Positions 645 through 56,032 of a stretch of DNA of 64,000 bases are shown piece after piece. Every line of letters starts with the position of its first letter. Within the stretch, counting starts at the first letter, position 1. The position numbers were made by a program, and so were the translations under genes. The stretch comes from Bacillota bacterium (lineage in GTDB: Bacteria; Bacillota; Desulfotomaculia; Desulfotomaculales; Ammonificaceae), in assembly GCA_040755195.1 (NCBI GenBank), contig JBFMBL010000011.1, forward strand, positions 5,754 through 69,753, given 5' to 3'. The notes below the pieces were generated by a model. That model was given only the letters and a program-made list of their open reading frames with translations. It was not told the origin of the DNA and made no database searches.

Positions 645-3600
645 ATGGTGCGGGTGCTCTTTTATACAGCGGTGGAAGGGGATCTCGGGCCGCTTTCCCG
701 GGCGGCGCAGGCGGTGCGGGAGGAGTACGGCCCGGTGATAGAGGTTCTGGCCCGGGCGCGGCGGGACGTTACCGGTACGGCGGGAGAAGAGGCACTGCTG
801 GCTGCGGCAACGAAAAGCGACTTCATTTTCCTGCACCTGATGGGCGGCCCGGAGGCGCTGCCGGGCTTTGACGGCCTGGTGCGTCTGGCGCGGGAGAAGG
901 GGATCCGGCTGCACGTTCAGCCCACGGCGGAGGAGGAGGACGCGGGGCTGCGGGCGGTAAGCACGGTAAGCGGCGCGGACTACGACCTGGTGCGCCGGTA
1001 CATCAGTTTCGGCGGGACGGAAAACATAGAGGCACTGCTCCACTGGTGTTTGTGGCGTATGGGTAAGGCGGCGGAAGCGCCGCCGGAACCGGTGCCGCTG
1101 CCCTGGGAAGGGATTTACCACCCGGCACTTAGGAAGCTGAGCGGTGGGTTGCTGGTAGCGCCGGAGGATTTCTGGCGGGCGGTTGACCCGGCAAAGCCGG
1201 TGGTGGCCCTGCTTTTCTACCAGAACTGGTGGGTGGCGGAGAACCTGGACTTTATCGATCTGCTGGTGGCGGCCTTGGAGGAAAGGGGAGCGGCGGCTTT
1301 GCCAGTTTTCCTTTACGCCTCGGCCAACGCGGCCCTCGGAAGCCGGGGGACCGCCTGGGTGGTGGAAAACTTCCTCTACCGGGACGGAAAACCGGCAGTA
1401 GATGCGGTCATCTCCACGCTAATGTTCGCCCAGACGCAGTCCACGCCTACTTACACGCGGGCGGCGGCGGAAAACTTCTACGCGCGGCTCGGGGTGCCGG
1501 TGATCAAGGCGGTGGCGGCGGTGACTGGCCGGGAGAAATGGACGCGGAGCCTGCAGGGGCTCGAACCGCTCGACGTGATTATGAGCATGGCGCTTCCGGA
1601 GTTCGACGGCCAGTTGATTACCGTCCCGGTGTCCTTCCGGGAGGAAGTGGCGCGGGACACCTTCACCGGGGCGACGGTGGTGCGCTACCTGCCGGAGCCG
1701 GAACGGACGGCGAAGGTGGCGGCTTTAGCGGTGAACTGGGCGCGACTGAGGCGGCTGCCGCCCGGAGAGCGGCGGGTGGCGGTTATCCTGCACAACTACC
1801 CGCCGCGCACCGACCGGATCGGCTGCGCCTTCGGGCTGGACACGCCGGCGAGTCTGCACCGGCTCCTTCTGCGGCTGCGCGACGCCGGTTTCCGGGTGGA
1901 AGGGCTACCGGCGGACGGGGAAGCCCTTTTCCGGCTGCTCCTCGACGGGATGACCAATGACGGATGCTGGCTGCCGCCGGAAGAGATGGCACGGCGGGCG
2001 GCGGGGAAGGTTCCGGCGGAAAGGTACGGGGCGTGGTTTGGCAAGCTGCCGGCGACGGTACGGGAGCGGCTGCAGAAAGACTGGGGTCCGCCGCCGGGGG
2101 AGGTTTTGAGCTATAACGGCGAACTGCTGGTTCCCGGCAGGCGTTTCGGCAATGTTTTCGTAGGGATTCAGCCGCCGCGGGGGTTTGATGCCCAGGTCGA
2201 GGCGGCTTACCACAGTCCGGACCTTTCGCCGCCTCACCAGTATCTTGCTTTTTACCGGTGGCTAAAGGAGGAGATTGGTGCCCACGTGGTGCTGCACCTC
2301 GGGAAGCACGGGACACTCGAGTGGTTGCCCGGAAAGGGAGCGGGACTTGCCGCGGCCTGCTTTCCGGACGCGGTGCTCGGGAATTTCCCGAACGTTTACC
2401 CCTATATCGTGAATAATCCAGGGGAGGGAACGCAGGCGAAGCGGCGCTCCTGGGCCTGCATCGTGGACCACCTGGTGCCGGTAATGACCGCCGCCGGGAG
2501 GTATGGGGAACTCGAGACCATCGAGACGCTCTGCCGGGAATACCAGGAGGTGCGGCAACTCGATCCGGGGAAGGCACCGGTCCTGGAGGAGAAGATCTGG
2601 GAGCAGGCGGCCCGGGCTTCCCTCGACCGGGATTTAGAGGTAACGCGGGCGGAGGCTTTTAGCGATTTCTCGGCTTTTTTAGAGCGGCTGCACGGGTACC
2701 TTCACGAGGTGGGAGATACCCTCATTAGGGACGGACTGCACATCCTGGGGTCGCCGCCGGAGGGGGAACGGCTCACGGAAATGCTCCTCTCACTCTGCCG
2801 CCTGCCGCACGGGGAGGTGTTGGCTTTGCGGGAGGCGGTGGCGGCTGCTTTAGGGGTTGAGTTTGCGGCCCTGGCGGCGGCGCCGGGGCGGTGGCTCCCG
2901 GAGCATAAGGTTACGGCGGCGGCCCTGCTGGAGATGGTGGAAGAAAAGAGCCGGGTGCTTTTGGCACGTTTTGCAACCGCCGGTTTTGCGGTCGAGGCGG
3001 CACCGGCGGTGGTGGCGGAGGTTCTCGGCAGGACGGCGCCGATCGTTCAGCGGGTGCTGGAATTTGTGGCGGCGGAAGCCCGGCCCCGGCTCCTGGCCAC
3101 GACGGAGGAGCTTGCGGCTTGCAAAGACGCGCTTTCCGGGCGGTACGTCCTGCCCGGTCCTTCCGGGGCGCCGACCCGGGGGCGGCTCGACGTTTTACCG
3201 ACGGGACGGAACTTTTACTCCATCGACCCGCAGGCGCTGCCCACCCGCGCGGCCTGGGAGGTGGGAAAGAGCCTGGGGGACGTGCTTTTAGCCCGGCATC
3301 TCACGGAAAGGGGCGAGTACCCGGAAAGCGTAGGGATGATAATCTGGGCGACGGTTGAGATGCGTACCGGCGGAGAAAACGTGGCCGAGGCACTCTACCT
3401 CTTAGGGGTGCAACCGGTCTGGGAAGAGGCAACCGGCCGGGTGCGGGGATTAGACGTGATTCCCCGGAAGGAACTCGGGCGGCCGCGGGTGGACGTGACG
3501 CTCAGGGTTTCCGGGCTCTTCCGCGATACCTTTCTTAACGTTATCCACCTTTTGGATGACGCGGTGCGGCTGGTGGCGGAACGGGAGGAGCCGGAGAACT

Positions 3601-4493
3601 TCGTCCGGCGGCACTTCCTCGCCGCGGCGGCGGTGGGGCGGGAGGCCGGCAAGGACGAGGCGACGGCCCGGGAGGAGGCACTTTTCCGGGTTTTCTCCGA
3701 CCCGCCGGGGGCCTACGGCGCGGGGGTCAGCCATCTGGTTGACAACAAGAACTGGAAGGATGCGAGTGATCTGGCGGCGGTTTACCTCACTTGGGGTGGT
3801 TACGCCTACGGGCGGAAGGTATATGCCCGGGAAGCAAAGGAGGTCTTCGCTAAGCGCCTGGCCGGGTTAAACTGTACGGTGAAGAACGAGGACAGCCGTG
3901 AGGTGGATATCTTTGACGACGATTGCTTTTACGCCTACCACGGAGGGATGATCGCCGCGGCGCGGGTCTTCGGCGCCGATCCGCTGAGCTTCAGCGGGGA
4001 CTCGTCCGATCCGCGGCGGGTGAGGGTTCGGACGGTGGCCGAGGAGGCGCGCCACCTCTTCCGGGCACGGGTGCTCAACCCGAAGTACATCGCGGGGATG
4101 AAACGCCACGGCTTCAAGGGTGCCGGGGACCTCTCCCGGATGGTGGACTACATCTTCGGCTGGGACGCCACGGCAAAGGTAATCGAAGGCTGGATGTACC
4201 GGGGGCTGGCGGAAAAGTATCTCTTCGATCCGGAGATGCGGGAGTGGTTTGCGAAGGTGAACCCCTGGGCGCTCGGGAACATCGCGGCGCGGCTCTTAGA
4301 GGCGGCGGCGCGGGGATTGTGGGCCCCCGCCCCCGAGGTGCTGGAAGGGATCAAGGAGGTCTACTTAGAGACGGAGGGCTGGATCGAGGAGCGGCTGGGC
4401 GACGTTCAAGGCGGCGCTGGCGGCCTCACCGCTGAAGGGATCGCCGGCCGGGGCGCCGGGATGCGGGAAAGTAAGGATGAACGGGAGAGTTGA
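645..4493 (+). CDS. cobN: CobN / Mg-chelatase H-family large chelatase subunit (cobaltochelatase-like)
   Basis: In-frame ATG at 645 (MVRVLFYTAVEG) inside ORF 225..4493. About 1280 aa with CobN-type blocks (VLHLGKHGTLEWLPGK, NPKYIAGMKRHGFKGAGD). Confidence 0.85.
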   Translation: MVRVLFYTAVEGDLGPLSRAAQAVREEYGPVIEVLARARRDVTGTAGEEALLAAATKSDFIFLHLMGGPEALPGFDGLVRLAREKGIRLHVQPTAEEEDAGLRAVSTVSGADYDLVRRYISFGGTENIEALLHWCLWRMGKAAEAPPEPVPLPWEGIYHPALRKLSGGLLVAPEDFWRAVDPAKPVVALLFYQNWWVAENLDFIDLLVAALEERGAAALPVFLYASANAALGSRGTAWVVENFLYRDGKPAVDAVISTLMFAQTQSTPTYTRAAAENFYARLGVPVIKAVAAVTGREKWTRSLQGLEPLDVIMSMALPEFDGQLITVPVSFREEVARDTFTGATVVRYLPEPERTAKVAALAVNWARLRRLPPGERRVAVILHNYPPRTDRIGCAFGLDTPASLHRLLLRLRDAGFRVEGLPADGEALFRLLLDGMTNDGCWLPPEEMARRAAGKVPAERYGAWFGKLPATVRERLQKDWGPPPGEVLSYNGELLVPGRRFGNVFVGIQPPRGFDAQVEAAYHSPDLSPPHQYLAFYRWLKEEIGAHVVLHLGKHGTLEWLPGKGAGLAAACFPDAVLGNFPNVYPYIVNNPGEGTQAKRRSWACIVDHLVPVMTAAGRYGELETIETLCREYQEVRQLDPGKAPVLEEKIWEQAARASLDRDLEVTRAEAFSDFSAFLERLHGYLHEVGDTLIRDGLHILGSPPEGERLTEMLLSLCRLPHGEVLALREAVAAALGVEFAALAAAPGRWLPEHKVTAAALLEMVEEKSRVLLARFATAGFAVEAAPAVVAEVLGRTAPIVQRVLEFVAAEARPRLLATTEELAACKDALSGRYVLPGPSGAPTRGRLDVLPTGRNFYSIDPQALPTRAAWEVGKSLGDVLLARHLTERGEYPESVGMIIWATVEMRTGGENVAEALYLLGVQPVWEEATGRVRGLDVIPRKELGRPRVDVTLRVSGLFRDTFLNVIHLLDDAVRLVAEREEPENFVRRHFLAAAAVGREAGKDEATAREEALFRVFSDPPGAYGAGVSHLVDNKNWKDASDLAAVYLTWGGYAYGRKVYAREAKEVFAKRLAGLNCTVKNEDSREVDIFDDDCFYAYHGGMIAAARVFGADPLSFSGDSSDPRRVRVRTVAEEARHLFRARVLNPKYIAGMKRHGFKGAGDLSRMVDYIFGWDATAKVIEGWMYRGLAEKYLFDPEMREWFAKVNPWALGNIAARLLEAAARGLWAPAPEVLEGIKEVYLETEGWIEERLGDVQGGAGGLTAEGIAGRGAGMRESKDERES

Positions 4494-4515
4494 GTATTTT
4501 GCGGGAGGGTTCTTG

Positions 4516-5964
4516 ATGCAAAAGGTGAAGAAAGTGGCATGTTTTTGGCTGGTATTCGTTCTTACTTTGGCCTTTTCGGGGGTTCCGGGAAGCGTTCTTC
4601 CACCGGCGCAGGCGGCGGGGATCACGGTGCTGGTTGACGGCAAGAAACTTTCCTGCGATACGCCGCCGGTGATTGAAGGGGGCCGCACGCTGGTACCGCT
4701 GCGGGCGATCTTTGAGGCGCTCGGGGCCGAGGTGGACTGGGACGGGGAAACCCGGACCGTGACCGGGAGAAAGGGAAGTACCGCCATTAAGCTGGTCATC
4801 GGCCCAAAAACGGCCTACGTAAACGGCGAGCCCGTTACCCTCGATGTGCCGGGGAAGATCATGAGCGGCCGGACGCTGGTGCCGCTGCGCTTCATCGGTG
4901 AGTCGCTGGGGGCTAAGGTGGGCTGGGACGGCGCGAAGCACACGGTGATGGTTTCCGCTGCGGCCGCACTTGCTGATAGTGCTTCCAGGCGGATCACCGT
5001 AACCGAGTATTTTGTTACCGCCACCGGCGAAATCGAGAAGCACGCGGTGCGGGTGCCCTGTCCGCCGAAGCGGGTGGCGGCGCTGGGCGGTTACGTCAAC
5101 GAAATGTTGAAGGCCCTCGGCGTTGAGAAGACGGTGGTGGCGGTTGACGACTGGACCAAAGATAAGGAACAGTGGCCGGATTTTGTGAACAAACTCCCTT
5201 CGGTGGGGAAGTCGTCCACGCCGAGCGTGGAGAAGATCCTGGCGCTCAAACCCGATCTGGTGATCGAAGGCTTCCTTAAACCCGAGATTCGCAGCCAGTT
5301 GCAGCGCGCGGGCATTCCGTCTCTGAAGATTTACGGTTATAAGACCGAGCTTATTCCCCGGGAGATTCGGACGCTGGGGCTTGTTTTCAACTGCCAGAAG
5401 CGGGCGGGCGAGTACGCCGGTTTTGTGGAAAAGCACTGGCGTACGGTTCAGGAGCGAACCGGAAAACTGACTACCCGCCAGAAGCCGAAGGTTTACTGGG
5501 AGTCCGGTATTTCTCCCTGGATACTACCCGGTCCCGGCTCGGGAGCCGACCCGCTGATCAAGTGGGCCGGCGGGATCAACCTCGGCGCCGAGCAGAGGAT
5601 CTCCTACCCGAGGGTAAGCGCGGAATGGGTCACGGCGAAGAATCCGGACGTGATTATCAAATACGTCAGCGCTCCGGAGGCCGGGTGGGAAGGAGATGTG
5701 GCGAAGCTGGAAAAGATCAGGCAGGAGATCATGCGCCACCCGGCGCTGCGGGGCACCAATGCAGTGAAGAAAGGCCGGGTCTACCTGATTAGCGCCAAGA
5801 TCGCTTGCGCGCCGCGGGGGGCGGCCGGAGAATACTACGTCGCCAAGTGGCTGCACCCGGAACTCTTTAAAGATATAGACCCGGAGGCGGTGCATAAGGA
5901 GATGCTCAAGAAGTTCTACGGGGAGGAACTAAAGGGCGTATGGGTTTACCCGGCGCCGAAGTAG
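4516..5964 (+). CDS. Secreted substrate-binding protein: two copper-amine-oxidase-N-like stalk repeats plus a FecB/BtuF-type periplasmic binding domain
   Basis: ATG 4516 with signal peptide (MQKVKKVACFWLVFVLTLAF...AQA). Tandem repeats GRTLVPLRAIFEALGAEVDWDG and GRTLVPLRFIGESLGAKVGWDG. The C-terminal ~330 aa resemble a class III binding protein. Confidence 0.75.
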   Translation: MQKVKKVACFWLVFVLTLAFSGVPGSVLPPAQAAGITVLVDGKKLSCDTPPVIEGGRTLVPLRAIFEALGAEVDWDGETRTVTGRKGSTAIKLVIGPKTAYVNGEPVTLDVPGKIMSGRTLVPLRFIGESLGAKVGWDGAKHTVMVSAAAALADSASRRITVTEYFVTATGEIEKHAVRVPCPPKRVAALGGYVNEMLKALGVEKTVVAVDDWTKDKEQWPDFVNKLPSVGKSSTPSVEKILALKPDLVIEGFLKPEIRSQLQRAGIPSLKIYGYKTELIPREIRTLGLVFNCQKRAGEYAGFVEKHWRTVQERTGKLTTRQKPKVYWESGISPWILPGPGSGADPLIKWAGGINLGAEQRISYPRVSAEWVTAKNPDVIIKYVSAPEAGWEGDVAKLEKIRQEIMRHPALRGTNAVKKGRVYLISAKIACAPRGAAGEYYVAKWLHPELFKDIDPEAVHKEMLKKFYGEELKGVWVYPAPK

Positions 5965-5981
5965 GGGGCGTGGCCTCCGGT

Positions 5982-6827
5982 ATGGTTTTAGAAACGGTAG
6001 ACCTCCACTACGCTTACCCCGACGGCACCCTGGCCCTGGAGGATTTAAACGTCGCTATTCCTGCGGGGGGCCGGGTTGCGCTGCTCGGCCCGAACGGGGC
6101 GGGAAAAACCACGCTTTTTCTGCTTCTGATCGGGATCCTGCGGCCTGCGGCCGGCAGGGTCCGCTTCGACGGGGAGGATTTGGGCGGCGGCCGGCGGAGC
6201 CTGGCCGGGCTGCGGCAGCGGGTGGGGCTGGTCTTCCAGGACCCGGAAGCACAAATTTTCGCACCGACGGTTTGGGAAGAAGTGGCTTTCGGCCCGGCTA
6301 ACCAGGGGCTGAGACGGGCGGCGGTGACGGAGCGGGTGGAGGCGGCGCTTGCGGCCGCAGACCTCCTGGAGTTGCGGGATAAGGCCACCCACTTTCTGAG
6401 CTACGGGCAGAAGAAGCGGCTCTGCCTGGCGGGGGTACTGGCGATGGCGCCGGAGGTGCTGCTCCTCGACGAGCCCACGGCGGGGCTCGACCCGGAGCAG
6501 ACGCGCCGGGTGGTGGGCATCCTTGACCAGTTGAGCCGGGCGGGCCGGACGCTGGTGTTAGCGACGCACGACGTGGACCTGGCCTACGCCTGGGCGGATA
6601 CGGTCTATATTTTCGGCCGGGGCCGGGTGCTGGAGGGCGGCGCGCCGGAAACGGTTTTTGCGGATGCGGCGCTGATGGAAAAGGCGAGCCTCAGGCGGCC
6701 GCTGCTGCTGGAAATTTTTCTGGCGCTGCGGGAGCGGGGTTTGCTGCCGCCGGGGGCGGCTGTGCCGCGGGTAAAAGAGGAACTCTGGAGTCTGTTGCCG
6801 GGAAAGGAGGTGATTGGTTATGGATAA
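5982..6827 (+). CDS. cbiO: Cobalt ECF/ABC transporter ATPase CbiO
   Basis: ATG 5982 (MVLETVDLHYAYPDG). Walker A GPNGAGKTT, signature LSYGQKKR, Walker B LLLDEP. Confidence 0.8.
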   Translation: MVLETVDLHYAYPDGTLALEDLNVAIPAGGRVALLGPNGAGKTTLFLLLIGILRPAAGRVRFDGEDLGGGRRSLAGLRQRVGLVFQDPEAQIFAPTVWEEVAFGPANQGLRRAAVTERVEAALAAADLLELRDKATHFLSYGQKKRLCLAGVLAMAPEVLLLDEPTAGLDPEQTRRVVGILDQLSRAGRTLVLATHDVDLAYAWADTVYIFGRGRVLEGGAPETVFADAALMEKASLRRPLLLEIFLALRERGLLPPGAAVPRVKEELWSLLPGKEVIGYG

Positions 6828-6987
6828 GGAAAAAGCTAAAAGTGGGGATCGAAAAAACACTGACAGTAAGAGTTCAAAGGCAAAATCCGAGCCCGTCTCT
6901 TACCGTCTGAAGTGCGCCAAGACAGCCAACGGACTGTCCCACTTTATAATGTACGGTGATGTACCCAAGGAAAAATCGCCGCTATAA
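6820..6987 (+). CDS. Candidate 55-aa Lys-rich precursor peptide for the adjacent radical SAM/SPASM enzyme
   Basis: Below the 60-aa cutoff, so absent from the supplied track. ATG 6820 overlaps the cbiO stop (ATGGATAA), with AGGAGG 9 nt upstream. Product is MDKEKAKSGDRKNTDSKSSKAKSEPVSYRLKCAKTANGLSHFIMYGDVPKEKSPL. It lies directly 5' of the SPASM gene. Confidence 0.45.
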   Translation: MDKEKAKSGDRKNTDSKSSKAKSEPVSYRLKCAKTANGLSHFIMYGDVPKEKSPL

Positions 6988-7013
6988 GCTTTGCGGGATG
7001 CAGAATAAAGAAT

Positions 7014-7109
7014 CAGGGCGCGGGGCGCAAGGTGTTGTGACGCCTGGCGCCCTGGTTCAAGGTCCAGAAATAATGGGAGTTCTTCGTGGCGCTTCGGGCC
7101 GCCGCCACG
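7014..7109 (+). promoter_or_regulatory. Two GC-rich hairpins between the small ORF and the radical SAM gene (possible attenuator or mRNA-stabilising structure)
   Basis: CAGGGCGC(7014-7021)/GCGCCCTG(7047-7054) with inner GGCG/CGCC. CGTGGCG(7085-7091)/CGCCACG(7103-7109) is followed by a short T-rich run. Confidence 0.35.
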
Positions 7110-7134
7110 GAGGAAAAATAGTTTTCGGGAGAGT

Positions 7135-8502
7135 ATGCGAATGCTAAACGATGTTCGGGATAAAAAAGGCTTGCTGTTGCGTGACATTGGCGAGAATCGG
7201 TTATTGGCGATTGATCCCGATAATGTTTTCTGGGGGATTATACCCAAGAAGCAAAATGCTGGTTCTTTGCCGCCCCAAGAAATAACATCGCTGTATGAGA
7301 CGGTAAAAAGTAAGTTAGACGTGCAAATGGACGAGTTCAGATTTGGTTCTGATTTAACCGCTATATATATAAACCCCACGGACAGGTGTAATGCCAATTG
7401 TTCTTATTGTTATATCCCGGCGGAAATCAGAAAAAATGGCAACCAGATGAATGAGGAACAACTTGAATATGTATTGAGGAAAATTGCTACCTATTTCAAG
7501 AGGAAAAAGACAGATACAAAACCGGTAATTGTATTCCATGCCAGTGAACCACTGTTAGCTAAAGATATTATCTTCAAGGCAATAAATGATCTTGACCATC
7601 GGTTTCATTTTGGGATCCAGACGAATGCGCTTTTGCTTGAAAAGCCGGATGTGGAATTTCTCAAGAAGCATAGAGTAGGCGTTGGCATCTCCCTGGACGC
7701 AATTGATCCTCAGGTAAACAACAGGCAGAGACCGGGCAGGGAGAGTAACGGAAACTTTGATAAAGCAGTACAGGCAATTGACTGGTTTGCCGGTTATGGG
7801 GGATTAAATGTAATTACCACCGTTACTAAGCTTAATGTCAGCTGTCTTCCAGAAATAGTAGAATTCCTGCATTCCAAAAAGGTTGGCTGCATCCTTCTTA
7901 ATCCGGTCAGATTAACCACAAAAACCGCGCGTAATTTACAGCCGCCCCAGGAGCTTTTGACCGGGTACTTTATAAAGGCGGTAGAGAAGGCAATGGAGTT
8001 ATCAGAATCCTCCAACCACAGAATTATCATCGGTAACTTTGCCAACATCATCTTGGGTATAGTCGCCCCGACCGCTCGCCGGCTGATGTGCGATATCTCT
8101 CCTTGCGGGGGAGGACGTTGCTTCTTAACAATTACCGCTTCCGGCAATATGATCCCCTGTGGCGAATTTATCGGGTTGGATGGGTTTTCGGGCGGGAATA
8201 TCTTTGATACCACAATTTCAAGGGCTATGCGGTCCAAGCCGTTCAAGGAGATCAGATCGCGGATAGTAGAGAAGATTGGCGAATGCCAAGCCTGTGATTT
8301 TAGAAATATATGCGGCGCGCCTTGCCCGGCGGAACTTTATTCACTCGGCAATATGTATCAGCCTTCAGTCTATTGTGAGTTCTATAAAGAAATAATCAGC
8401 TACGCTTTCAAAGTGGTAGCCGAAGATAAGGTTAAATACCTTCTTCGGGAGGAATCTTTAAGGAATCTTGAGTACGAGTACAATCTAAGTATCTCTGGGT
8501 AG
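7135..8502 (+). CDS. Radical SAM enzyme with C-terminal SPASM domain (peptide-modifying type)
   Basis: CNANCSYC (CX3CX2C) near the N-terminus. C-terminal CGGGRC...PC and CQACDFRNICGAPC (CX2CX5CX3C). Start is 7135 or 7141. Markedly AT-richer than its flanks. Confidence 0.85.
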   Translation: MRMLNDVRDKKGLLLRDIGENRLLAIDPDNVFWGIIPKKQNAGSLPPQEITSLYETVKSKLDVQMDEFRFGSDLTAIYINPTDRCNANCSYCYIPAEIRKNGNQMNEEQLEYVLRKIATYFKRKKTDTKPVIVFHASEPLLAKDIIFKAINDLDHRFHFGIQTNALLLEKPDVEFLKKHRVGVGISLDAIDPQVNNRQRPGRESNGNFDKAVQAIDWFAGYGGLNVITTVTKLNVSCLPEIVEFLHSKKVGCILLNPVRLTTKTARNLQPPQELLTGYFIKAVEKAMELSESSNHRIIIGNFANIILGIVAPTARRLMCDISPCGGGRCFLTITASGNMIPCGEFIGLDGFSGGNIFDTTISRAMRSKPFKEIRSRIVEKIGECQACDFRNICGAPCPAELYSLGNMYQPSVYCEFYKEIISYAFKVVAEDKVKYLLREESLRNLEYEYNLSISG

Positions 8503-8628
8503 TTATTCACGGTAATGTCGCCTGACAGCAGAGGAAAGGTTTGTGCTTCATAGTACTCACCCCTGTCTGTTTTGGCACGGCAGACGGCTTTTGGGTTTTG
8601 CAAAAATCTGTTTCGGGAGGATGTCTCA

Positions 8629-10371
8629 TTGAAGCGGCTGCGGGAAGGTTACACCACCGGGATGTGCGCGGCGGCGGCGGCCAAAGCGGCGGCGCTGCTC
8701 CTTTTTCACGCGGAGGCCCCGGCAGCGGTGGTAGTGACCACGCCGCTCGGCCGGGAGCTTACGCTTCCGGTGGCCGAAGCAGAGACGGGCGAGGGCTGGG
8801 CGCGGTGCGGGGTGGTAAAGGATGCGGGCGATGACCTGGACGCGACCCACGGGCTCACGGTTTACGCCACGGTGCGCCAGGCGGTGGAAATCGTCTTGCG
8901 GGGCGGCGAAGGGGTCGGGGTGGTCACGCGGCCAGGCTTGGCGGCGCCGGTGGGGGAACCGGCGATAAACCCGGCGCCGCAGGCGGTGATTATCCGGGAA
9001 GTGGCGGCGGTGCTGCCCCCGGGACAAGGGGCGGAGATCACCATCAGCGTACCGGGCGGGGAGAAGGCGGCGGACAAGACCTTCAATCCGCGCCTGGGGA
9101 TCGTCGGGGGGATTTCGATCCTGGGAACGACAGGAATTGTAAAGCCGATGTCTGAGGAGGCTTACCGGGATTCGCTGGCCTGCGCGGTGGACGTGGCGGC
9201 GGCGGAGGGATACCTCCGGCTGGTAATGGCGCCGGGGCGCACGGGAGAAAAGCTGGCGGTTGAACGCTACGGTTTTCCGGCGGCGGCGGTGGCGCAGATA
9301 GGCAATTTTGTGGGGTTCATGCTCGAACGTACGGCGGCGGCTGGAATCAAGGAGGTTTTGCTCTGGGGGCACCACGGGAAGCTGGTGAAGGTAGCCGGCG
9401 GCATCTTCAATACCCACAGCCATGTGGCGGATGGACGGCTCGAAATCCTTGCGGCTCTGGCGGCGATGGAAGGAGCGGCGGCGGAGACGGTGGTGCAGCT
9501 GCTGGACTGCGCTACGGCCGAGGAGGCGGTGCCTGTGCTGGCGGCGGCCGGGCTTGCGCAGGTCTTCGCGGCGGCGGCGGCGCGGGCGAGCCGGCGGGCA
9601 GCGGCTTTCGTTAAAGGAAGGCTGCGGGTGGGTACGGTGCTGCTCGACCGAAGCGGCGCGGTTTTGGGTTTGGACCCGGCGGCGCGGGAGATTGCGGCGG
9701 CGCTCGGGGTAAGTCTTCCGGCGATAGAACGCGGGCTTGCGCCCGGCGTTTACGTGGTAGGGCTGGGGCCGGGAGCGCCGGAGTATATAACCCCGGCAGC
9801 ATGGCGGTTTATCCGGGGGGTAAAGGTGCTGGTCGGCGGGAAAAAGGCGCTAACCTTTGTCAATCCACCGTCGGGAACGGAAACTTATACCATCACGCGC
9901 GACTACCGTGCACTTTTGGAACTAATCGCCTCCCGAAGCCGGGAAGTGCCGGTGGCGATTTTGGTTTCAGGTGATCCAGGGTTCTACAGTTTTTTAGGTA
10001 CATTGCGGCGATATCGGCCGGATTTGCCGGTGACGGTGGTTCCGGGGATCAGCACGGCGGCAGCGGCTTTCGCTCGTTTGGGAATGGGATACGAGGATGC
10101 GGTATTTGTAAGCCTTCACGGGCGGGAAAGCGGAGCGGGAACCCTGCTCGCGGCGGTGAAAAACTCTGCCAAGGTCCTGGCTTTTACCGACCCCCGGCAC
10201 CCCCCGCAACTGGTGGGGCGTCTCCTTACAGATCAGGGAATGGGAGAGCGGAAAGTATACGTTTTCTCCAATCTTTCGCTGCCTGCAGAAAAGTTTTTTG
10301 CGGGGCGGGCGGCAGAGTTGGCGGCATTTAAGGAAGAATTTTCTAACGCGGTGGTGGTTCTGATTGATTGA
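8629..10371 (+). CDS. cbiD: Fusion of CbiD (cobalt-precorrin-5B C1-methyltransferase) and CbiE (cobalt-precorrin-7 C5-methyltransferase)
   Basis: TTG 8629 with GGGAGG 8 nt upstream. N-terminal part has LREGYTTGMCAAAAAKAA (CbiD). The C-terminal ~200 aa have VYVVGLGPGAPEYITP...SGDPGFYS (CbiE-type) in the same ORF. Confidence 0.8.
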   Translation: MKRLREGYTTGMCAAAAAKAAALLLFHAEAPAAVVVTTPLGRELTLPVAEAETGEGWARCGVVKDAGDDLDATHGLTVYATVRQAVEIVLRGGEGVGVVTRPGLAAPVGEPAINPAPQAVIIREVAAVLPPGQGAEITISVPGGEKAADKTFNPRLGIVGGISILGTTGIVKPMSEEAYRDSLACAVDVAAAEGYLRLVMAPGRTGEKLAVERYGFPAAAVAQIGNFVGFMLERTAAAGIKEVLLWGHHGKLVKVAGGIFNTHSHVADGRLEILAALAAMEGAAAETVVQLLDCATAEEAVPVLAAAGLAQVFAAAAARASRRAAAFVKGRLRVGTVLLDRSGAVLGLDPAAREIAAALGVSLPAIERGLAPGVYVVGLGPGAPEYITPAAWRFIRGVKVLVGGKKALTFVNPPSGTETYTITRDYRALLELIASRSREVPVAILVSGDPGFYSFLGTLRRYRPDLPVTVVPGISTAAAAFARLGMGYEDAVFVSLHGRESGAGTLLAAVKNSAKVLAFTDPRHPPQLVGRLLTDQGMGERKVYVFSNLSLPAEKFFAGRAAELAAFKEEFSNAVVVLID

Positions 10372-27663: not shown

Positions 27664-29487
<1,824 letters not shown>

Positions 29488-29599: not shown

Positions 29600-29790
29600 T
29601 GCGTATGCGCGTGAAAAGCCATACTCTGCCGAATCGCCACCTGGTGCTTTTGTCCCGGCGGTTACCCGCCGGTTTTGTGACACCGCTTACGGCCGTGGCC
29701 GGCCGGGAGGCACCCGCCGAATAGACCTCGATAAGCCTCCCCCTCGTCAACTGTCTTTGGTGCGATGATGAACTTCACCTGGCTGTTTCA
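29600..29790 (-). ncRNA. glmS ribozyme (GlcN6P-dependent), boundaries approximate
   Basis: Minus strand reads GACGAGGGGGAGGCTTATCGAGGTCTATTCGGCGGGTGCCTCCCGGCC...GCCGTAAGC...GGGACAAAAGCACC. This matches the conserved ribozyme core as I remember it from Bacillus and Thermoanaerobacter, and it lies directly 5' of glmS. Confidence 0.8.
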
Positions 29791-29892
29791 GAAGTCAGAA
29801 GCCAGAAGTCGGAAGTCCGAAAATTTAGGGGAAATTCGCATAGCGAATTTCTACAAAGATTCTGACCTCTGACATCCTGCATCCGACATCCG
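29789..29892. repeat. Heptad-periodic imperfect inverted repeat around a central hairpin
   Basis: CAGAAGT CAGAAGC CAGAAGT CGGAAGT ... GAAATTCGC-ata-GCGAATTTC ... TCTGACC TCTGACA TCCTGCA TCCGACA. Confidence 0.6.
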
Positions 29893-29990
29893 TTTCTGCC
29901 ATGCTCGTTCCTGATCGCACCCGAAGGTTTAACTTTCAACCTCCACAAACAGTTCTGGCGCTTGCAAATTGTCAGTTAAGAAACCTCATT

Positions 29991-47647: not shown

Positions 47648-48154
47648 TTATTCAAATTGTAGCACCGGATATTCCATTATTACGAGAGTCCGTTTATTAC
47701 CAGCTTTTTCCGTCAACCTGACCGCCGCCGATGAACCGCCGGCGCTTGTCACCGTAACCGTCTGTGTATCGCCGTCCCAGCTCACATCGGCGCCCAGCGC
47801 CTCAGACACGAAGCGAAAGGGCGCCAGAGTACGACCGTTTACGATCTTCGGGGGAACGTCGAGGTATACGGGGGCGCCGCCGGCATAAGCCGTTGTCACA
47901 CCTATGGTCACCACCGCCGTCTTTTCCGCTTTAGTTATTGTAACGGTCCGCGTAGTTCCGTCCCACACCGTTTCCCCACCGAGGGCCGCGGCGACGGCTC
48001 TCAAGGGCACCAGAACCCGGCCCCGCTCGATTATCGGCGGCTGATCCAAAGACAGCGGGGCGCCGTCCACAACCACTCCCGGCGCGGCGCAGGCCGTCCC
48101 CGCCGCCGCAAGCATCACCATTAGTACCGCAAAAATCACGGTTGTTTTTCGCAT
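47648..48154 (-). CDS. Secreted copper-amine-oxidase-N-like (stalk) domain protein
   Basis: Signal peptide MRKTTVIFAVLMVMLAAAGTACA. Repeats GRVLVPLRAVAAALGGETVWDG and GRTLAPFRFVSEALGADVSWDG. Confidence 0.7.
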   Translation of the reverse strand: MRKTTVIFAVLMVMLAAAGTACAAPGVVVDGAPLSLDQPPIIERGRVLVPLRAVAAALGGETVWDGTTRTVTITKAEKTAVVTIGVTTAYAGGAPVYLDVPPKIVNGRTLAPFRFVSEALGADVSWDGDTQTVTVTSAGGSSAAVRLTEKAGNKRTLVIMEYPVLQFE

Positions 48155-48394
48155 TATATCCCTCCCGGCAATCCAGCCTGCAGTCTTCGAAAGTCGCCCA
48201 ACCCTCCTTATCCGATTAAAATTCCCGAGCGGGGTCCACCGGCGTTGCGCCTTCTCTGCCCCGCGAACATTACATTTTTATAACACCGCCCGCCGTTAAA
48301 AAATAACACCCTTGGCAAAAGATTTTCAGGCATTCTTTTCGGCCCGCGCCTGCAAACGCTGCCGCACTGATTTCTTCCTTTACCAAATAAAAAC

Positions 48395-48437
48395 ACCCCG
48401 GTGCTGTCAGGCTGTGGAATCCGACAGACAACGGGGT
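48395..48437. terminator. Bidirectional terminator-like hairpin
   Basis: ACCCCG..CTGTC...GACAG..CGGGGT, flanked by a T-run on the plus strand (ATTCTTTT) and on the minus strand (GTTTTTATTT). It lies downstream of the minus-strand ABC ATPase. Confidence 0.5.
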
Positions 48438-48540
48438 ATTCTTTTCGACACTCGGTGGAATTGATAATAAAGCGACAGGAAGCGTGGCCGAGTCAGGCTT
48501 CGTTTAAGGATAACCGCCGGGATTCGTCCCGGCGGAATTT

Positions 48541-49248
48541 TCAAACAGCATTCGAATAAGCTGATTCCGAATCAGAAACCTTTTTCAGACTTCCATCTTC
48601 AAACCGGTAAACCACATCTGCCTCTTCCGCCACCTCATGCGAATGGCTCACAACAACTACACACTTGTTATATACATGAGCCAGTTCCTTGAATATTTCT
48701 ACTATTTCCCTTGCCGTACGCATGTCAAGATTTCCGGTGGGTTCATCCGCAAGTATTACCTCCGTATTACCGGCCAACGCCCGCGCTATCGCAACCCTTT
48801 GCTGCTGCCCGCCGGAGAGCTGCATGACATTTCGTTTTGCCTCATTCTCCTTGAGCCCAAGATCGTTTAACAACTTCAAAGCCCGTTGTTTACGTTCACC
48901 CTTATATGAACCCGAAAGCTCCATCGCCATGATAACATTTTCCAGCGCCGTCATGTAATTTATGAGATTATAGTTTTGAAAAATCAAAGAAACATTTTCC
49001 CTGCGGTATCTTGTAAGGCCTATCTTCTTAATATCCTGACCACCAAAAAGAACCCTGCCTTTCTGTGGGACGTCCAGGGCTCCGGCGAGAGCCAAAGACG
49101 TAGTTTTTCCGGAACCGGAAGGCCCGACTATTGTATAAAAGACACCTTTTTCGAAAGAAACACTGGCGTTTTTTAGAACATCCACCCGTTGCCCGCCGTT
49201 TGAATAGCCGAACGTAACATCATCAAATTCAAGCACCGCTTCCATCAT
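48541..49248 (-). CDS. MacB/LolD-type ABC ATPase (apparently orphaned)
   Basis: GPSGSGKTT, LSGGQQQRVAIARAL, ILADEPTGNLD. Confidence 0.8.
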   Translation of the reverse strand: MMEAVLEFDDVTFGYSNGGQRVDVLKNASVSFEKGVFYTIVGPSGSGKTTSLALAGALDVPQKGRVLFGGQDIKKIGLTRYRRENVSLIFQNYNLINYMTALENVIMAMELSGSYKGERKQRALKLLNDLGLKENEAKRNVMQLSGGQQQRVAIARALAGNTEVILADEPTGNLDMRTAREIVEIFKELAHVYNKCVVVVSHSHEVAEEADVVYRFEDGSLKKVSDSESAYSNAV

Positions 49249-49258
49249 ATCAGCCCCC

Positions 49259-49684
49259 TCATAGCGCCTTTGTCAAAATAGCATTCGGTTTGTAACGCAT
49301 TACTGTACCGGCCGGCAGTATTGTACCGGCAATTAATATAAGTAAACCCGCGGCTGACATTTGTTCCACCTCTGCGCCGGTGACTTGAATACTAAGAGAG
49401 TCGATAGGCTGGTAGTTTCGCTCGAACAGCCTTCCGAAGCGGCCCCCTTGCATCTGGGAAAAGCCTCTGCCGGCGCCTGCCGCAATATTACTGTCTCCTT
49501 GATCCTGTACCACCTGAATCTCACGTTCCAGTAACATATCACCCACACCCTGAGCTATGAATTTTCCGCTGAACACCGACAAGCCGAAAGCCACTACAGC
49601 AACCACCAGTACTTCCGCCAGATACTGGGTAATAATTTTCACCTTTCCTTCGCCCATTGACAAAAGCACGCCTGTTTCATACAT
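49259..49684 (-). pseudogene. C-terminal fragment of an FtsX-type ABC permease
   Basis: Only the last ~140 aa are present (GVLLSMGEGKVKIITQYLAEVLVV...VMRYKPNAILTKAL). There is an in-frame stop 12 codons upstream. The N-terminal ~2/3 is replaced by the neighbouring gene. Confidence 0.5.
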
Positions 49685-49709
49685 TCTCCTGTAACAGTCA
49701 CATCGGGTA

Positions 49710-50213
49710 TTACAAAATCACCGCCTGAATAACTACAGGAGTACCAACGGAAACATAGTCATAAATTTCATTTACATCTGCATTAGCCAGCCCCACGCAC
49801 CCCCAGGTCCAATCGCCGGGTCCGTTGGTATCATTGCCTCCATGAATTCCGATCCCACCTCCAAGAGGAGTATACTGAGGCGGAATTTGCCCGCTGTTTG
49901 TGGCACCGACTATGTAATCATAAGTCGCCTGGTCTATCAAACCCGAATTCAAACCCCGCCGGGCGTCATCAATGTTTGGGTAACTGAGCCGCATCCACCT
50001 GGTACCGAGATATTGGTCCGGCGGCGAAAATACCGATTTTTCAGCGATATAGAAAGATCCCTCCGGCGTTTTATGATCCCCCGCCACCTGTTTATCCTCC
50101 AGTCCGCTGTCTCCGATTTCCACCTGGTATGACTTGAGCGGGGTCGCACCCGAATACAGGGTCAATAGGCGGCCGGTTTTGTTTACGACTATCTTCAGAT
50201 TGGGAACCGGCAC
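49710..50213 (-). CDS. L,D-transpeptidase (YkuD) catalytic domain, separated from its LysM part by an in-frame stop
   Basis: GIHGGN...WGCVGL active-site region. The upstream same-frame ORF ends ...YPGQTLQIPG...GQY-TAA (50276-50274). No signal peptide is left. Confidence 0.6.
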   Translation of the reverse strand: MPVPNLKIVVNKTGRLLTLYSGATPLKSYQVEIGDSGLEDKQVAGDHKTPEGSFYIAEKSVFSPPDQYLGTRWMRLSYPNIDDARRGLNSGLIDQATYDYIVGATNSGQIPPQYTPLGGGIGIHGGNDTNGPGDWTWGCVGLANADVNEIYDYVSVGTPVVIQAVIL

Positions 50214-50273
50214 GGAAATCCCCTTTTCCTGCAGAATTGATGCCAGCGGCTGACCGGAGGTTTCATCCTTGTT

Positions 50274-50560
50274 TTAGTACTGACCTTCATTATTCGAACC
50301 TGCCGGTTCCGGTTTCACGCCGGGAATCTGCAGGGTTTGCCCGGGATAAACAACATCAATTTCCAACCCGTCAAAAGACTTAACACCTCTATTGCCTTCA
50401 ACACGCCTCAACAAGGCCTGAACCCTGGCAGCCAGTATTTTAAAGACTGAACGGTTTTGCAATATACTCGTCCGCGCCGAGGTCAAAGCCGAAAAGCTCA
50501 CGGATTCTTCTCCTCTTGCAGTCAGAATGATAATGGGAATTCCATCTCCAAAGCAATGGC
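50274..50560 (-). pseudogene. Chimeric remnant: OmpR-type response-regulator fragment (double frameshift) fused to the C-terminal end of a LysM domain
   Basis: IPIIILTARGEE and ILAARVQALLRR lie in one frame, while GFDLGADEYIAKPFS lies in another. The winged-helix start KSFDGLEIDVV runs directly into YPGQTLQIPG. Confidence 0.5.
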
Positions 50561-51032
50561 AATTGCCGGAACAGATACAAGCAGTATTACCCGCTTCTTT
50601 AGTGTATACAATAACCGGCTTTTAAAAAGCCGGCGGAATCCCTCATTTGAGACTGAAGAAAAGTGACTCCTTGTGGTAAAATTGTTGCATAGTAAGCGAC
50701 GAATGGAAGTTCAACATCAAGGTTGAAGAAGTACTGCTATCCGATGCTCCGCCGTTTAGACCGGCGATCACTGCCAGCCGTGGCGCGGCACCGGAACAGT
50801 ACCCGGATTTCTGGGAAGAAGAGGAAGACAACGGTTTTGAATATACCTTAAACGGCGAACCGCCCAATAACCGCAAACCCTTGATACACTAATGGTTGTA
50901 CGGCGGCCTTTAGCCGGAGAAACCGGCGGGGGTTAAAAGCCCCGACCGTAAATGCTCAGTAAACCCCACAGGTATTTTTTGACGGAATGCGGTTAGAAGT
51001 ATGCATGTCACGAATTGAAAGATATGGGATAT

Positions 51033-51060
51033 TTGTTAACCACGTGCTCCGTTGTATACT
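51033..51060 (+). promoter_or_regulatory. Sigma-70-like promoter
   Basis: TTGTTA (51033-51038), 16 nt spacer, TATACT (51055-51060) followed by ATAAT. Confidence 0.45.
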
Positions 51061-51092
51061 ATAATCATAAAGAAGAGAGTAGGAGAAGCCGA

Positions 51093-51308
51093 ATGAAAAT
51101 TATCGGTAGGAGAGACCCTGAGAAGCCCGTGCCCTTTGTGGAATACTGGAACACTTTTGTTGAGTTTTCTTTGGCGCTTCACGGTGGGGGATTTCCCATA
51201 CCGCGGGGCGTTTGGCGTTTCAGGAATTTTGAGGAGGCAAAAGAATGGGAGGACCGGATGCTCCTGGGGGAGAAACCCGCAGCAGGCCCCCCGCTAAAGA
51301 GGATCTGA
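51093..51308 (+). CDS. Hypothetical 71-aa protein
   Basis: ATG 51093 follows GTAGGAGAAG (MKIIGRRDPEKPVPFVEYW...). Overlaps the next gene by 64 nt. Confidence 0.4.
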   Translation: MKIIGRRDPEKPVPFVEYWNTFVEFSLALHGGGFPIPRGVWRFRNFEEAKEWEDRMLLGEKPAAGPPLKRI

Positions 51309-51745
51309 AAAACATCTGTAAAAGGTTCAGGGAGTTAGGCGTAAAGTACATCCTCGTCGGAGGAGTAGCCGTCAACCTTTACGGCAGGCCCAGGATGACA
51401 CATGACATTGATTTCCTGGTCGATCCTTCGCCGGAAAATATTAAGAAAGCAAAAGAGGCTTTAATGGTACTTGAAGACGGAGCAGCGCGCGACTTGCGGC
51501 CGGATGACCTGGAAAAATACGGAGTAGTTAGAATCGCGGACGAGGTTGTAGTGGATTTGATTGGCAAAATCGGTGACGTCAACACGGATAACGCGGGAAC
51601 TGTTTACTTTGACCTGGAGGGTGAGCGGATAGTTGTCGCCGATCTTGACACCTTGATTGAAACAAAAAAGGGTTTGAGGGAACGGGACAAAGAGGACCTT
51701 TTTTTCTTATTACTGAAAAGGCAAAAAATCACCCCAAATACCTAA
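51245..51745 (+). CDS. Nucleotidyltransferase-fold protein
   Basis: ATG 51245 lies 7 nt after GAGGAGG. Motif LVGGVAVNLYGRPRMTHDIDFLV (GG..A...R.T.D.D). Confidence 0.55.
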   Translation: MGGPDAPGGETRSRPPAKEDLKNICKRFRELGVKYILVGGVAVNLYGRPRMTHDIDFLVDPSPENIKKAKEALMVLEDGAARDLRPDDLEKYGVVRIADEVVVDLIGKIGDVNTDNAGTVYFDLEGERIVVADLDTLIETKKGLRERDKEDLFFLLLKRQKITPNT

Positions 51746-52129
51746 TTTTAAGGTTCATTCAGGATGGTATAAAAAGATATAAATCAAATCCTTGAACCAT
51801 ACGGAAATAATTCAGCGCTTAGAAATCTGAAACATCAAGGCTACCCGCCGGAAACGCTGCGCTTATTCCCGCCCAACTTTGCTCGATCCTCAGATTTGTT
51901 CAGTATAAGGTAACTCCGCTGCAACTCCTTTCAAAGCCGCAGAAATAAAGGCCGAACCGCGGGTTATAGCGCGATTCGGCGCGGGTGAGCAAACCTGTAA
52001 GCCGAGTTCTCCGGAAGAAACACCCAAGGGTCTCTTAGCGCACGTCTTCAAGGAGTTACAAGGGTTTAAGGGTCCGCATGCCGTGCGGGCCCGCAAAAAT
52101 CTACATTCACCAAACCTTGGAGGTGTGTT

Positions 52130-52249
52130 ATGTCGCAGTTACCTGAAATTATCCGCGAGTTCCTGCGTTACCTGCGGGTGGAGAAAAACGCCTCCCCCCT
52201 CACCCTGGCGGCCTACCGTTCGGACATCAAGCCCCTCGATGATCCATAG
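52130..52249 (+). pseudogene. N-terminal 39-codon remnant of a XerC/XerD-type tyrosine recombinase
   Basis: MSQLPEIIREFLRYLRVEKNASPLTLAAYRSDIKPLDDP-stop. This is the SAM-like core-binding motif only; no catalytic domain follows. Confidence 0.55.
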
Positions 52250-52401
52250 CCTAAGCGCAAGGATTGGCGGCGTCAGTTAGAACATCACTGATAACCACGG
52301 TCGCCGTGCTTCATCCGGAGAAAAGGGTTACAGGATCATCGGACAGCGACCTGAAGAAACCCTTTTGCTCCATGATAACGTAGCCAACACTGCCGGATAG
52401 A

Positions 52402-52429
52402 TTGACTTTGAAATTGACAATGTTATAAT
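52402..52429 (+). promoter_or_regulatory. Sigma-70-like promoter of the mntA-hepT operon
   Basis: TTGACT (52402-52407), 16 nt spacer, TATAAT (52424-52429). TTGAC repeats nearby could be operators. Confidence 0.55.
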
Positions 52430-52467
52430 AGTAAATAGTTGGTAGTTGACTTTTTGAGGGGTTAGCT

Positions 52468-52761
52468 ATGGGCGGTATTAACGAACAACTAACAATTAAA
52501 CGCGAAGAAGTTCTGCGTATAGCTGCGCGGCATGGCGCTTATAATGTTCGTATTTTCGGCTCAACGGCGCGAGGTGAAGCCGGGCCGGGTAGCGACGTGG
52601 ACTTTGTGGTAGATCTGGAGCCCGATCGAAGCCTCTTTGATCTCGGCGGCTTGTTGATGGATCTGCAGGCTCTATTGGGATGTAAGGTTGACGTGGTAAC
52701 GGAGCAGGGATTGCACTGGTACATTCGCGATCAAATCTTGGCGGAGGCTAAGCAGTTATGA
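52468..52761 (+). CDS. mntA: MNT-type nucleotidyltransferase antitoxin MntA (type VII TA)
   Basis: [23 protein letters not shown] minimal NTase motif. Confidence 0.85.
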
Positions 52762-53084: not shown

Positions 53085-53243
53085 CGAACCCGCAGGTCCC
53101 TTTGCTGCACAGGTAAAGTGGCAAAATGAACGACGCACAAGAATATGGAGTGTTTTTAAAAATCCGGTCTGTCGACTCTTTTGGGGTCTCTGCCGGTGAA
53201 CCTTTCGGCGTGCCCGTAGTCCATAAACTACCGGCACACGGGT

Positions 53244-55977: not shown

Positions 55978-56032
55978 GATACTCCCCCTCTCAATCCTTT
56001 TTGCTGCTGCCTGACGTCCACAACTTTACCTT

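Follow-up and report, generated by a model that had tools for sequence, protein, structure and literature searches.

A stretch of 64,000 nucleotides of contig JBFMBL010000011.1 (Bacillota bacterium, assembly GCA_040755195.1, positions 5,754 to 69,753 of the forward strand), referred to below as the window, was analysed for a two-gene cassette, cbpA-cbpB, which lies in a cobamide (vitamin B12) biosynthesis operon between cbiO and a cbiD-cbiE fusion gene and encodes a 55-residue precursor-like peptide followed by a radical S-adenosylmethionine (SAM) enzyme with a SPASM domain. The features of the locus, in window coordinates, are:

5940-6827, + strand: cbiO, energy-coupling factor (ECF)/cobalt-type ATP-binding cassette (ABC) ATPase (TIGR01166, 239 bits against a cutoff of 212; guanine-plus-cytosine content at third codon positions, GC3, 0.78)
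6800-8600, no strand: block of low guanine-plus-cytosine content (G+C), comprising the cbpA-cbpB cassette with its spacers and marked by a drop in both G+C and GC3
6806-6812, + strand: Shine-Dalgarno sequence GGAGGTG, 7 nt 5' of the cbpA ATG, read from the sequence
6820-6987, + strand: cbpA, 55-residue precursor-like peptide, taken from the list of open reading frames (ORFs) and from homologues upstream of cbpB
7010-7058, + strand: intercistronic hairpin 1, predicted by folding, G+C-rich, with no U-run after it
7080-7114, + strand: intercistronic hairpin 2, predicted by folding, partly conserved in the related loci L001 and L084
7127-7133, + strand: Shine-Dalgarno-like sequence GGGAGAG, 7 nt 5' of the ATG at 7141, read from the sequence
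7141-8502, + strand: cbpB, radical SAM/SPASM enzyme of 453 residues (TIGR04163; Pfam Radical_SAM and SPASM)
8563-8597, + strand: terminator-like hairpin with a T-rich tail in the cbpB-cbiD spacer, inside the AT-rich block; a consensus match only
8629-10371, + strand: cbiD-cbiE fusion, the downstream flank (TIGR00312 CbiD, 425 bits; TIGR02467 CbiE, 156 bits)
Gene order of the operon in the window: cbiQ (partial)-cobN-periplasmic binding protein-cbiO-[block]-cbiD/E-cbiT-cbiL-cbiF-cbiG-cbiH-cbiJ-cbiC-cobQ-cbiA-cobT-btuFCD

The start of cbpB, as read from the sequence, is most likely the ATG at 7141, which the public gene call P0001 (453 residues) matches; an alternative ATG lies at 7135. The cbpA gene ends 153 nt upstream of cbpB and the pair is flanked by cbiO and cbiD. 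On its profile score CbpB is clearly a member of the TIGR04163 family (rSAM_cobopep, 'peptide-modifying radical SAM enzyme CbpB'), which it matches at 506.8 bits (E = 4.3e-152, cutoff 375) with residues 17-435 aligned to positions 5-426 of 428. The radical SAM enzyme with a full SPASM domain that a first-pass annotation of this DNA had described was recovered with Pfam (Radical_SAM, 69 bits; SPASM, 30.6 bits against a cutoff of 21.5), and both the radical-SAM motif C83-x3-C87-x2-C90 and the eight SPASM Cys residues (317, 322, 340, 382, 385, 391, 395 and 412) are invariant in 120 CbpB homologues.

All other NCBIfam models matched CbpB far under their own cutoffs, the highest being PapB (NF047865, 118.7 bits against 340), DynA (118 bits), YhhB (106 bits) and the anaerobic sulfatase-maturating enzyme anSME (TIGR03942, 102.6 bits against 349); about half these scores were reached by the tetrapyrrole-modifying enzymes AhbD (TIGR04545, 59.5 bits against 500), NirJ2 (TIGR04055, 58.5 against 500) and AhbC (TIGR04546, 57.7 against 650). 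Ranked by sequence, the nearest PDB entries were CteB (E = 1.9e-24), ChlB and anSME. An AlphaFold2 model of CbpB built on the 120 homologues (predicted local distance difference test score, pLDDT, 87.5; predicted template modelling score, pTM, 0.90) ranked anSME first by fold (target-normalised TM-score 0.82), then CteB, SuiB, ChlB and TigE. Sequence identity to these solved structures is only 17-21%; all of them act on Cys, Ser or peptide substrates. Since its closest sequences and folds are anSME, CteB, ChlB, SuiB and TigE, CbpB is grouped, by sequence and by predicted fold, with SPASM enzymes acting on peptides or proteins. A grouping with SPASM enzymes of non-peptide substrates, which the first-pass annotation had named as one outcome that would speak against its proposal, was thus not obtained, the peptide- and protein-modifying families (103-119 bits) scoring about twice as high as the tetrapyrrole ones (58-60 bits). 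In the model the radical-SAM barrel is preceded by an extra N-terminal domain (residues 12-68) made up of three β-strands and one long helix.

The 55-residue ORF was as the first-pass annotation had read it: coupled to a Shine-Dalgarno sequence, with its ATG (6820) overlapping the cbiO stop codon TAA (6825-6827), and containing 11 Lys and a single Cys (C32). That annotation had reported the ORF as missed by its own ORF track; the gene callers of the public collection do call it (P0121). Residues 1-26 of CbpA are variable and Lys-rich and the conserved core is S27-YRLKCAKTANGLSHFIMYGDVPKEKSPL; across the family the near-invariant core reads SYRLKCAKTANGLSHFVMYGD. In 120 clusters of database peptides, K31, C32, T35, N37, G38, L39, H41, F42, M44, Y45, G46 and D47 are 100% conserved, and the first 22 or so residues are variable with 27% Lys. 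A shorter variant ending without 'MYGD' (…NGLSHYVPAEKKALV) was found, and the minimal conserved unit is therefore about S27-V43. Over the 16-codon core, the mean pairwise differences at codon positions 1, 2 and 3 were 0.154, 0.091 and 0.593, respectively (78 loci), third positions thus varying about 4-6 times as much as first and second positions; the core is therefore selected at the protein level, and cbpA is a real gene. A homologue at 4495-4626 of locus L048 has two Cys residues 7-8 residues upstream of the C32 site, which in that peptide is replaced by Gly (see below).

Where relatives of the window CbpA carry a name, it is 'hypothetical protein', and a profile search with the peptide alignment returned 728 clusters, of which all 120 matches listed are unnamed or 'hypothetical protein'. 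Scans of CbpA against NCBIfam and Pfam at E ≤ 0.01 matched nothing. At E ≤ 10 the only NCBIfam match, a weak one, was TIGR04164 (cobo_pep, 'modified peptide precursor CbpA'), with residues 27-43 (VSYRLKCAKTANGLSHF) aligned to model positions 3-19 of 25 at 12.2 bits (E = 0.09) against a cutoff of 35. When ten relatives were scored, eight matched in the same register at 11.9-27 bits and two gave no match; none reached 35. Since the window peptide and all ten relatives fall below the cutoff, TIGR04164 is, as judged from these scores, too narrow for this branch of CbpA. The rSAM_cobopep/CbpA-CbpB pair named in the first-pass annotation was thus borne out for the enzyme but not, at the curated threshold, for the peptide. 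A CbpA profile run against PDB sequences hit an antibody heavy chain only, which was dismissed as a chance match. Modelled alone with AlphaFold2, CbpA has a disordered N-terminus and a predicted β-hairpin with strands 28-34 and 40-46 joined by the turn T-A-N-G-L; the model has a pLDDT of 88 for residues 31-40 but a pTM of no more than 0.31.

Both of the hairpins that had been placed after the ORF were found on folding (7010-7058 and 7080-7114). The cbpA-cbpB spacer of the window has a minimum free energy of -68.4 kcal/mol (z = -3.98), and none of 200 shuffles folded equally well. L001 and L084 retain hairpin 1, with both partners replaced in two of its pairs (three sequences only). Among 70 non-redundant cbpA-cbpB spacers the median z was -5.6, with 74% below -4, whereas the 60 control spacers taken from these loci had a median of -2.6, with 33% below -4; all scores derive from mononucleotide shuffles, and the controls are structured too. 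A stable structure in the cbpA-cbpB spacer is a family trait. A reading of the hairpins as classical intrinsic terminators was not supported (no U-run here; a T-rich tail in only 11 of 72 loci), and one as copies of a dispersed repeat was rejected (no second copy within the window). Terminator-like sites number four in the region against 2.9 ± 1.6 expected, so that the site at 8563-8597 is not significant alone; the cbpB-cbiD spacer that holds it is 126 nt long in the window and 54 nt in L001, and the two do not align.

The distribution of the pair was examined by a scan of one genome per species, which gave at least 593 loci encoding a CbpB relative; the best 80 of these were analysed and come from Nitrospirota, Omnitrophota, Planctomycetota, Nitrospinota, Firestonebacteria and others. 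By tblastn, a peptide ORF was found 5' of cbpB in 78 of 83 loci. Three of the five negative loci have too little upstream sequence, leaving 80 informative loci from several phyla, in 78 of which cbpA lies upstream of cbpB (97% co-occurrence). Conservation of a small ORF upstream of orthologous radical SAM genes, on which the first-pass annotation had made its proposal depend, is therefore present, and the layout of precursor plus maturase that it had recognised is real and conserved across loci.

For the neighbourhood survey all ORFs within ±6 kb were clustered in 81 non-redundant loci (those of the scan together with L001). The families found most often were the CbiO-type ATPase (45 loci), CbiX-CbiC (43) and CbiQ (33), followed by CobT, CobS and CbiM (29 each), CbiA (28), CobD-type aminotransferase (25), corrin methylases and CbiB (24 each), CobU and CobQ (21 each), CobC (19), BtuF and CobA (15 each) and a TonB-dependent receptor (14). 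Without exception, the neighbour families present in at least 10 of the 81 loci either take part in making, salvaging or importing cobamides or are common in clusters of that kind, and they are all encoded on the cbpB strand. No peptidase or exporter family was found among the shared neighbours of the 81 loci or in the window operon. In Nitrospirota the pair has cbiO on one side and either cbiD or cobA on the other, and in Omnitrophota and other lineages it is placed between cbiB and cbiA or else between cobU and cobT; salvage and nucleotide-loop clusters also carry it, adjoining btuFCD, cobC and cobS, and the cluster at L087 is purely of the salvage and nucleotide-loop type. This variation in placement argues against mere hitch-hiking.

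In L004 (Nitrospirota) an adenosylcobalamin riboswitch identified with Rfam ends 74 nt before cbpA, and in L035 (Firestonebacteria) a cobalamin riboswitch ends 190 nt before cbpA, which is there the first gene of the operon, the upstream gene lying on the opposite strand. Operon-level riboswitches (Rfam) precede the pair in L026, L087, L014, L029, L024 and L084. No cobalamin riboswitch reached the gathering score in the window; in the syntenic L084 the riboswitch stands before cbiM, and the equivalent site would lie beyond the left edge of the window. The cbpA-cbpB pair is thus tied to cobamide metabolism as a whole: the B12 setting proposed in the first-pass annotation stands, but the link is not specific to cobalt uptake.

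Base composition sets the cassette of the window apart from its surroundings, as the first-pass annotation had noticed from the AT-rich block at 6820-8502. Mean G+C is 0.454 in the cassette and 0.637 in the flanks (45% against 64%); in 200-nt windows it is 0.355-0.515 over about 6800-8600 and 0.62-0.73 in the adjacent cbi genes, and cbpA and cbpB have GC3 values of 0.50 and 0.49, respectively, where the neighbouring genes have 0.67-0.80. The flanks had been put at about 70% G+C, which is the value of the operon and not a genome baseline, the window beyond the cbi operon having a G+C of only about 0.55-0.58. The flanking cbiO and cbiD-cbiE have host-like G+C. AT-richness as an intrinsic property of the cbpA-cbpB family was ruled out: in 77 other loci the median difference between cassette and flank G+C is -0.001, a strong deviation occurring only in the window lineage (L001, -0.19) and in L037 (-0.12), and cbpB is GC-rich in GC-rich hosts (for example, GC3 0.73 in L019). 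The nearest relatives beyond the window lineage (68-75% amino-acid identity) are in genomes of Nitrospirota type, where cbpB has a GC3 of 0.34-0.43, the same as its neighbouring genes. Since the G+C of cbpB follows the host in other loci and deviates in the window lineage, the low G+C is read as the mark of an import of the cassette from a low-G+C donor, its GC3 of 0.49 being plausibly a partly ameliorated value.

Nucleotide identity between the window and L001 is 91% in the cassette and 90% in the flanks, and between the window and Thermodesulfitimonas sp. (Clostridia) it is 76-79% in cassette and flanks alike. By this comparison the cassette was already present in the common ancestors shared with L001 and with Thermodesulfitimonas sp. 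The ratio of nonsynonymous to synonymous substitution rates (dN/dS) against L001 is 0.22 for cbpB and 0.37 for cbpA, the neighbouring cbi genes giving 0.15-0.29, and both genes are under purifying selection in the window lineage. Window positions 5984-8441 are syntenic with L084 8001-9412 and L085 6684-8095 (Thermodesulfitimonas sp. GCA_052743955.1 and a Logan contig, respectively). In both loci the stretch corresponding to window 7150-7382, the coding region of the CbpB N-terminal domain, is gone; the cbpB fragments comprise 163 and 121 residues in L084 and 163 and 100 residues in L085, the latter cut at the contig end, and cbpA is still intact (65% identity).

The explanation proposed for these observations, to which we give about an even chance of being correct, is that cbpA and cbpB form a two-gene module for a ribosomally synthesised and post-translationally modified peptide (RiPP) with a function in cobamide metabolism. 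CbpA would be made in excess over CbpB, the spacer stem-loops stabilising or partly terminating the cbpA-containing transcript; a high ratio of precursor to enzyme is suggested here because of what is generally known of RiPP and pyrroloquinoline quinone (PQQ) operons. CbpB would bind CbpA, reductively cleave SAM and abstract a hydrogen atom within the invariant core (residues 27-47, the predicted β-hairpin), and would then cross-link the peptide internally, most likely by a thioether joining the single conserved Cys32 to the cross-strand His41, Phe42 or Ile43 or to the turn residues Thr35 or Asn37. The product would probably stay and act in the cytoplasm, since no exporter, peptidase or signal sequence is linked to the pair, and could under B12 shortage be an accessory factor, for instance one that handles cobalt or intermediates of the corrinoid pathway. 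A further-reaching version is put forward tentatively, as one more likely to prove wrong than right: the modified CbpA would be an unrecognised component of anaerobic cobamide metabolism, induced through riboswitches at low B12 in at least 590 species of several mostly uncultivated phyla. It could either be a peptide-derived carrier of cobalt or corrinoids or give rise to a new ligand or cofactor, and its chemistry would be unlike that of the characterised ranthipeptides and sactipeptides (for example, a single cross-strand Cys cross-link in a β-hairpin).

Several observations weigh against this proposal. The action of CbpB on CbpA is a prediction. CbpB has no Pfam match to a PqqD-like RiPP recognition element (RRE), and its N-terminal domain, with three strands and one helix in the AlphaFold2 model, does not correspond to the canonical three-strand, three-helix RRE. 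Its full set of eight SPASM Cys residues may leave no open iron site for a substrate Cys, unlike in CteB (PMC8326336). On the side of the peptide, the window CbpA misses the TIGR04164 cutoff, as described above, and the L048 peptide has a Gly in place of the 'invariant' Cys (…YRLKGAKTSNGLSHF…), which could be a sequencing error or a genuine variant bearing on the modification site. Two loci, L013 and L043, have no recognisable cbpA within about 700 nt, the pair at L086 977-2585 stands among non-B12 genes, and the break of cbpB in the sister lineage L084/L085 indicates that the module is dispensable at least there. The dependence of the spacer z-scores on mononucleotide shuffles, with controls that are structured as well, also belongs on this side.

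Comparison with known systems places the pair closest to the CbpA/CbpB family itself (TIGR04164/TIGR04163), with which it shares an enzyme above the equivalog cutoff, a small peptide gene immediately 5' and the cobalamin-operon context, and from which it differs in that its peptide is part of a large branch that scores under the model's threshold and has the core ...NGLSHF-VMYGD-VPKxK. The family is catalogued, the NCBI pipeline naming CbpB, and is defined by genomic context only; no experimental characterisation of CbpA/CbpB or TIGR04163/4 was found in the searchable full-text literature, in agreement with the first-pass annotation, which knew of no experimentally determined function. A radical SAM/SPASM enzyme with an adjoining short Cys-containing peptide is also found in SCIFF (CteA-CteB) and in other ranthipeptide and sactipeptide systems (PapB/freyrasin, NxxcB, QhpD); CteB is the best PDB sequence match of CbpB and PapB its best non-self NCBIfam match. 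Thioethers in these relatives join Cys to Thr (CteB), to Asn (NxxcB) or to Asp/Glu (freyrasin and QhpD) (PMC8326336), and CbpA has an invariant Cys32, Thr35, Asn37 and Asp47 to set beside these Cys-Thr, Cys-Asn and Cys-Asp systems. The differences are that CbpB scores far below the maturase models (PapB as given above; 77.1 bits against 425 for the SCIFF maturase, TIGR03974), that CbpA has a single Cys and not several, that CbpB has the full eight SPASM Cys, that no canonical RRE was detected and that the context is that of B12. The enzyme anSME, which oxidises Cys or Ser in a protein substrate (PMC8326336), is the best structural match and has an identical pattern of eight auxiliary Cys residues, but CbpB stays well under the anSME cutoff, has the extra N-terminal domain and has no sulfatase gene nearby. 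The motif targeted in sulfatases is C/S-x-P/A-x-R, whereas CbpA reads K-C-A-K-T-A-N, without Pro or Arg at +2 and +4.

PqqA/PqqE and MftA/MftC resemble the pair in combining a tiny, strongly conserved peptide with a radical SAM/SPASM enzyme, and the role of those systems is physiological and not antibiotic; a stem-loop after the precursor gene has been described for PqqA/MftA-type operons. It is conceivable, although unlikely, that CbpA is consumed as the precursor of a small molecule, CbpB cross-linking or oxidising the core and an excised product feeding the cobamide pathway, for example as a lower ligand or linker of an unusual kind or as a cofactor in redox reactions or cobalt handling. 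Near-invariance of the core from phylum to phylum, a trait typical of cofactor precursors but not of antibiotic RiPPs, fits such a role, as do riboswitch control, by which the pair would be switched on at low B12, and the position of cobT (lower-ligand activation), which directly follows or overlaps cbpB in at least nine loci. However, no peptidase or other tailoring enzyme is conserved beside the pair in the 81 loci, no PqqD/RRE partner is linked to it and it has no match to those families, the clusters already hold canonical CobT, CobS, CobU, CobC and CobD, and the conservation extends over the entire 30-residue region and not just a short C-terminal motif. Alternatively, CbpB could modify a corrin intermediate in the manner of AhbC, AhbD and NirJ, with CbpA as a partner or scaffold and not the substrate, which we regard as quite unlikely. 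Genes for these SPASM enzymes likewise lie in operons of tetrapyrrole pathways, cbpA-cbpB is tightly integrated into operons for corrin-ring biosynthesis and CbpB matches the tetrapyrrole-acting enzymes at E of about 1e-16; yet the match is weak, at half the scores of the peptide and protein modifiers, to which the nearest solved structures also belong, those enzymes work without a partner peptide whereas cbpB co-occurs with one in 97% of loci, and the pair is also found in salvage and nucleotide-loop clusters with no ring-synthesis genes nearby (L087 and Omnitrophota loci).

The suggestion of the first-pass annotation that the product might be a metallophore or a chaperone is a guess; its first part bears on a secreted RiPP, that is, a molecule scavenging cobalt or corrinoids, a signal or an antimicrobial, which would be re-imported through BtuFCD or TonB-dependent receptors. 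The RiPP-like layout, the presence of BtuF near the pair in 15 loci and of a TonB-dependent receptor in 14, and the potential metal ligands Cys, His, Met and Asp in the core could be so explained, but the lack of a conserved exporter or protease nearby makes a secreted metallophore less likely; neither a signal peptide nor a leader-cleavage motif is conserved either, the invariance of the core speaks against an arms-race molecule and the hosts are both Gram-positive and Gram-negative, so that this account is judged improbable. Least credence is given to the cassette being, in this genome, a decaying passenger of no current function: its foreign origin and the pseudogenised cbpB of L084/L085 would suit that account, but here both genes are intact with all family-invariant residues present, their dN/dS values are comparable with those of the neighbouring cbi genes, and neither the start signals nor the coupling to cbiO has been lost.

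Among long pathways, that of cobamide biosynthesis is considered one of the best mapped, and yet at least 593 species-level genomes keep a radical SAM enzyme with its peptide within their B12 clusters. Should the peptide handle cobalt or corrinoids or supply a ligand, the textbook anaerobic pathway would be missing a part in Nitrospirota, Omnitrophota, Planctomycetota and some Clostridia. In annotation, a large branch escapes the curated CbpA model, leaving the substrate gene unnamed or uncalled even where CbpB is named. The cassette also offers a natural experiment, as it was apparently imported into a high-G+C Clostridia lineage and is kept under selection here and decaying in a sister lineage. 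New here are the sub-cutoff branch of the peptide, the riboswitches directly 5' of cbpA, the conserved intercistronic structure, the predicted hairpin core and the history of transfer and decay in the Clostridia lineage.

Some further observations were made in the loci carrying the pair. At L086, the flanking genes encode a CDP-alcohol phosphatidyltransferase and a protein similar to homocitrate/isopropylmalate synthases; the contig is 5.1 kb long and its CbpB is 77% identical to that of the window. A gene with PF01902 (Diphthami_syn_2, ATP-pyrophosphatase-like) recurs with cbpA-cbpB at L033 4207-4872, L065 9874-10566, L087 11334-12059 and eight further loci, standing after cobS in L087 and directly 3' of cbpB in L033, and what it would contribute to B12 metabolism is not obvious. 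In three Nitrospirota loci (among them L009 7352-8065 and L011 7352-8071), the gene directly after cbpB encodes a second radical-SAM protein, a small one (about 237 residues, Radical_SAM and Fer4_12).

In the window itself, the start codon of cbiD-cbiE is a TTG at 8629 with GGGAGGA upstream at 8615-8621, and its product of 580 residues has the same length as the L001 orthologue. On the + strand, the segment 1-4493 opens inside cbiQ (tblastn match 112-546) and carries a gene for a CobN-type chelatase subunit (about 645-4493) between cbiQ and cbiO, the operon being otherwise of the anaerobic type (CbiD/G/T); the order cbiQ-cobN-cbiO is also present in L084. Between cobN and cbiO lies a gene for a periplasmic binding protein with Cu_amine_oxidN1 and Peripla_BP_2 domains (4477-5964, + strand), which looks like a lineage-specific insertion because in the syntenic L084 cobN is directly followed by cbiO. 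Other stretches of low G+C (0.45-0.50 against about 0.57 elsewhere in the window) were found at 48000-54000 and 56000-60000, and an ordinary glmS ribozyme (90 bits) lies at 29631-29973 on the - strand upstream of an ORF of 607 residues (27664-29487, - strand), presumably glmS.

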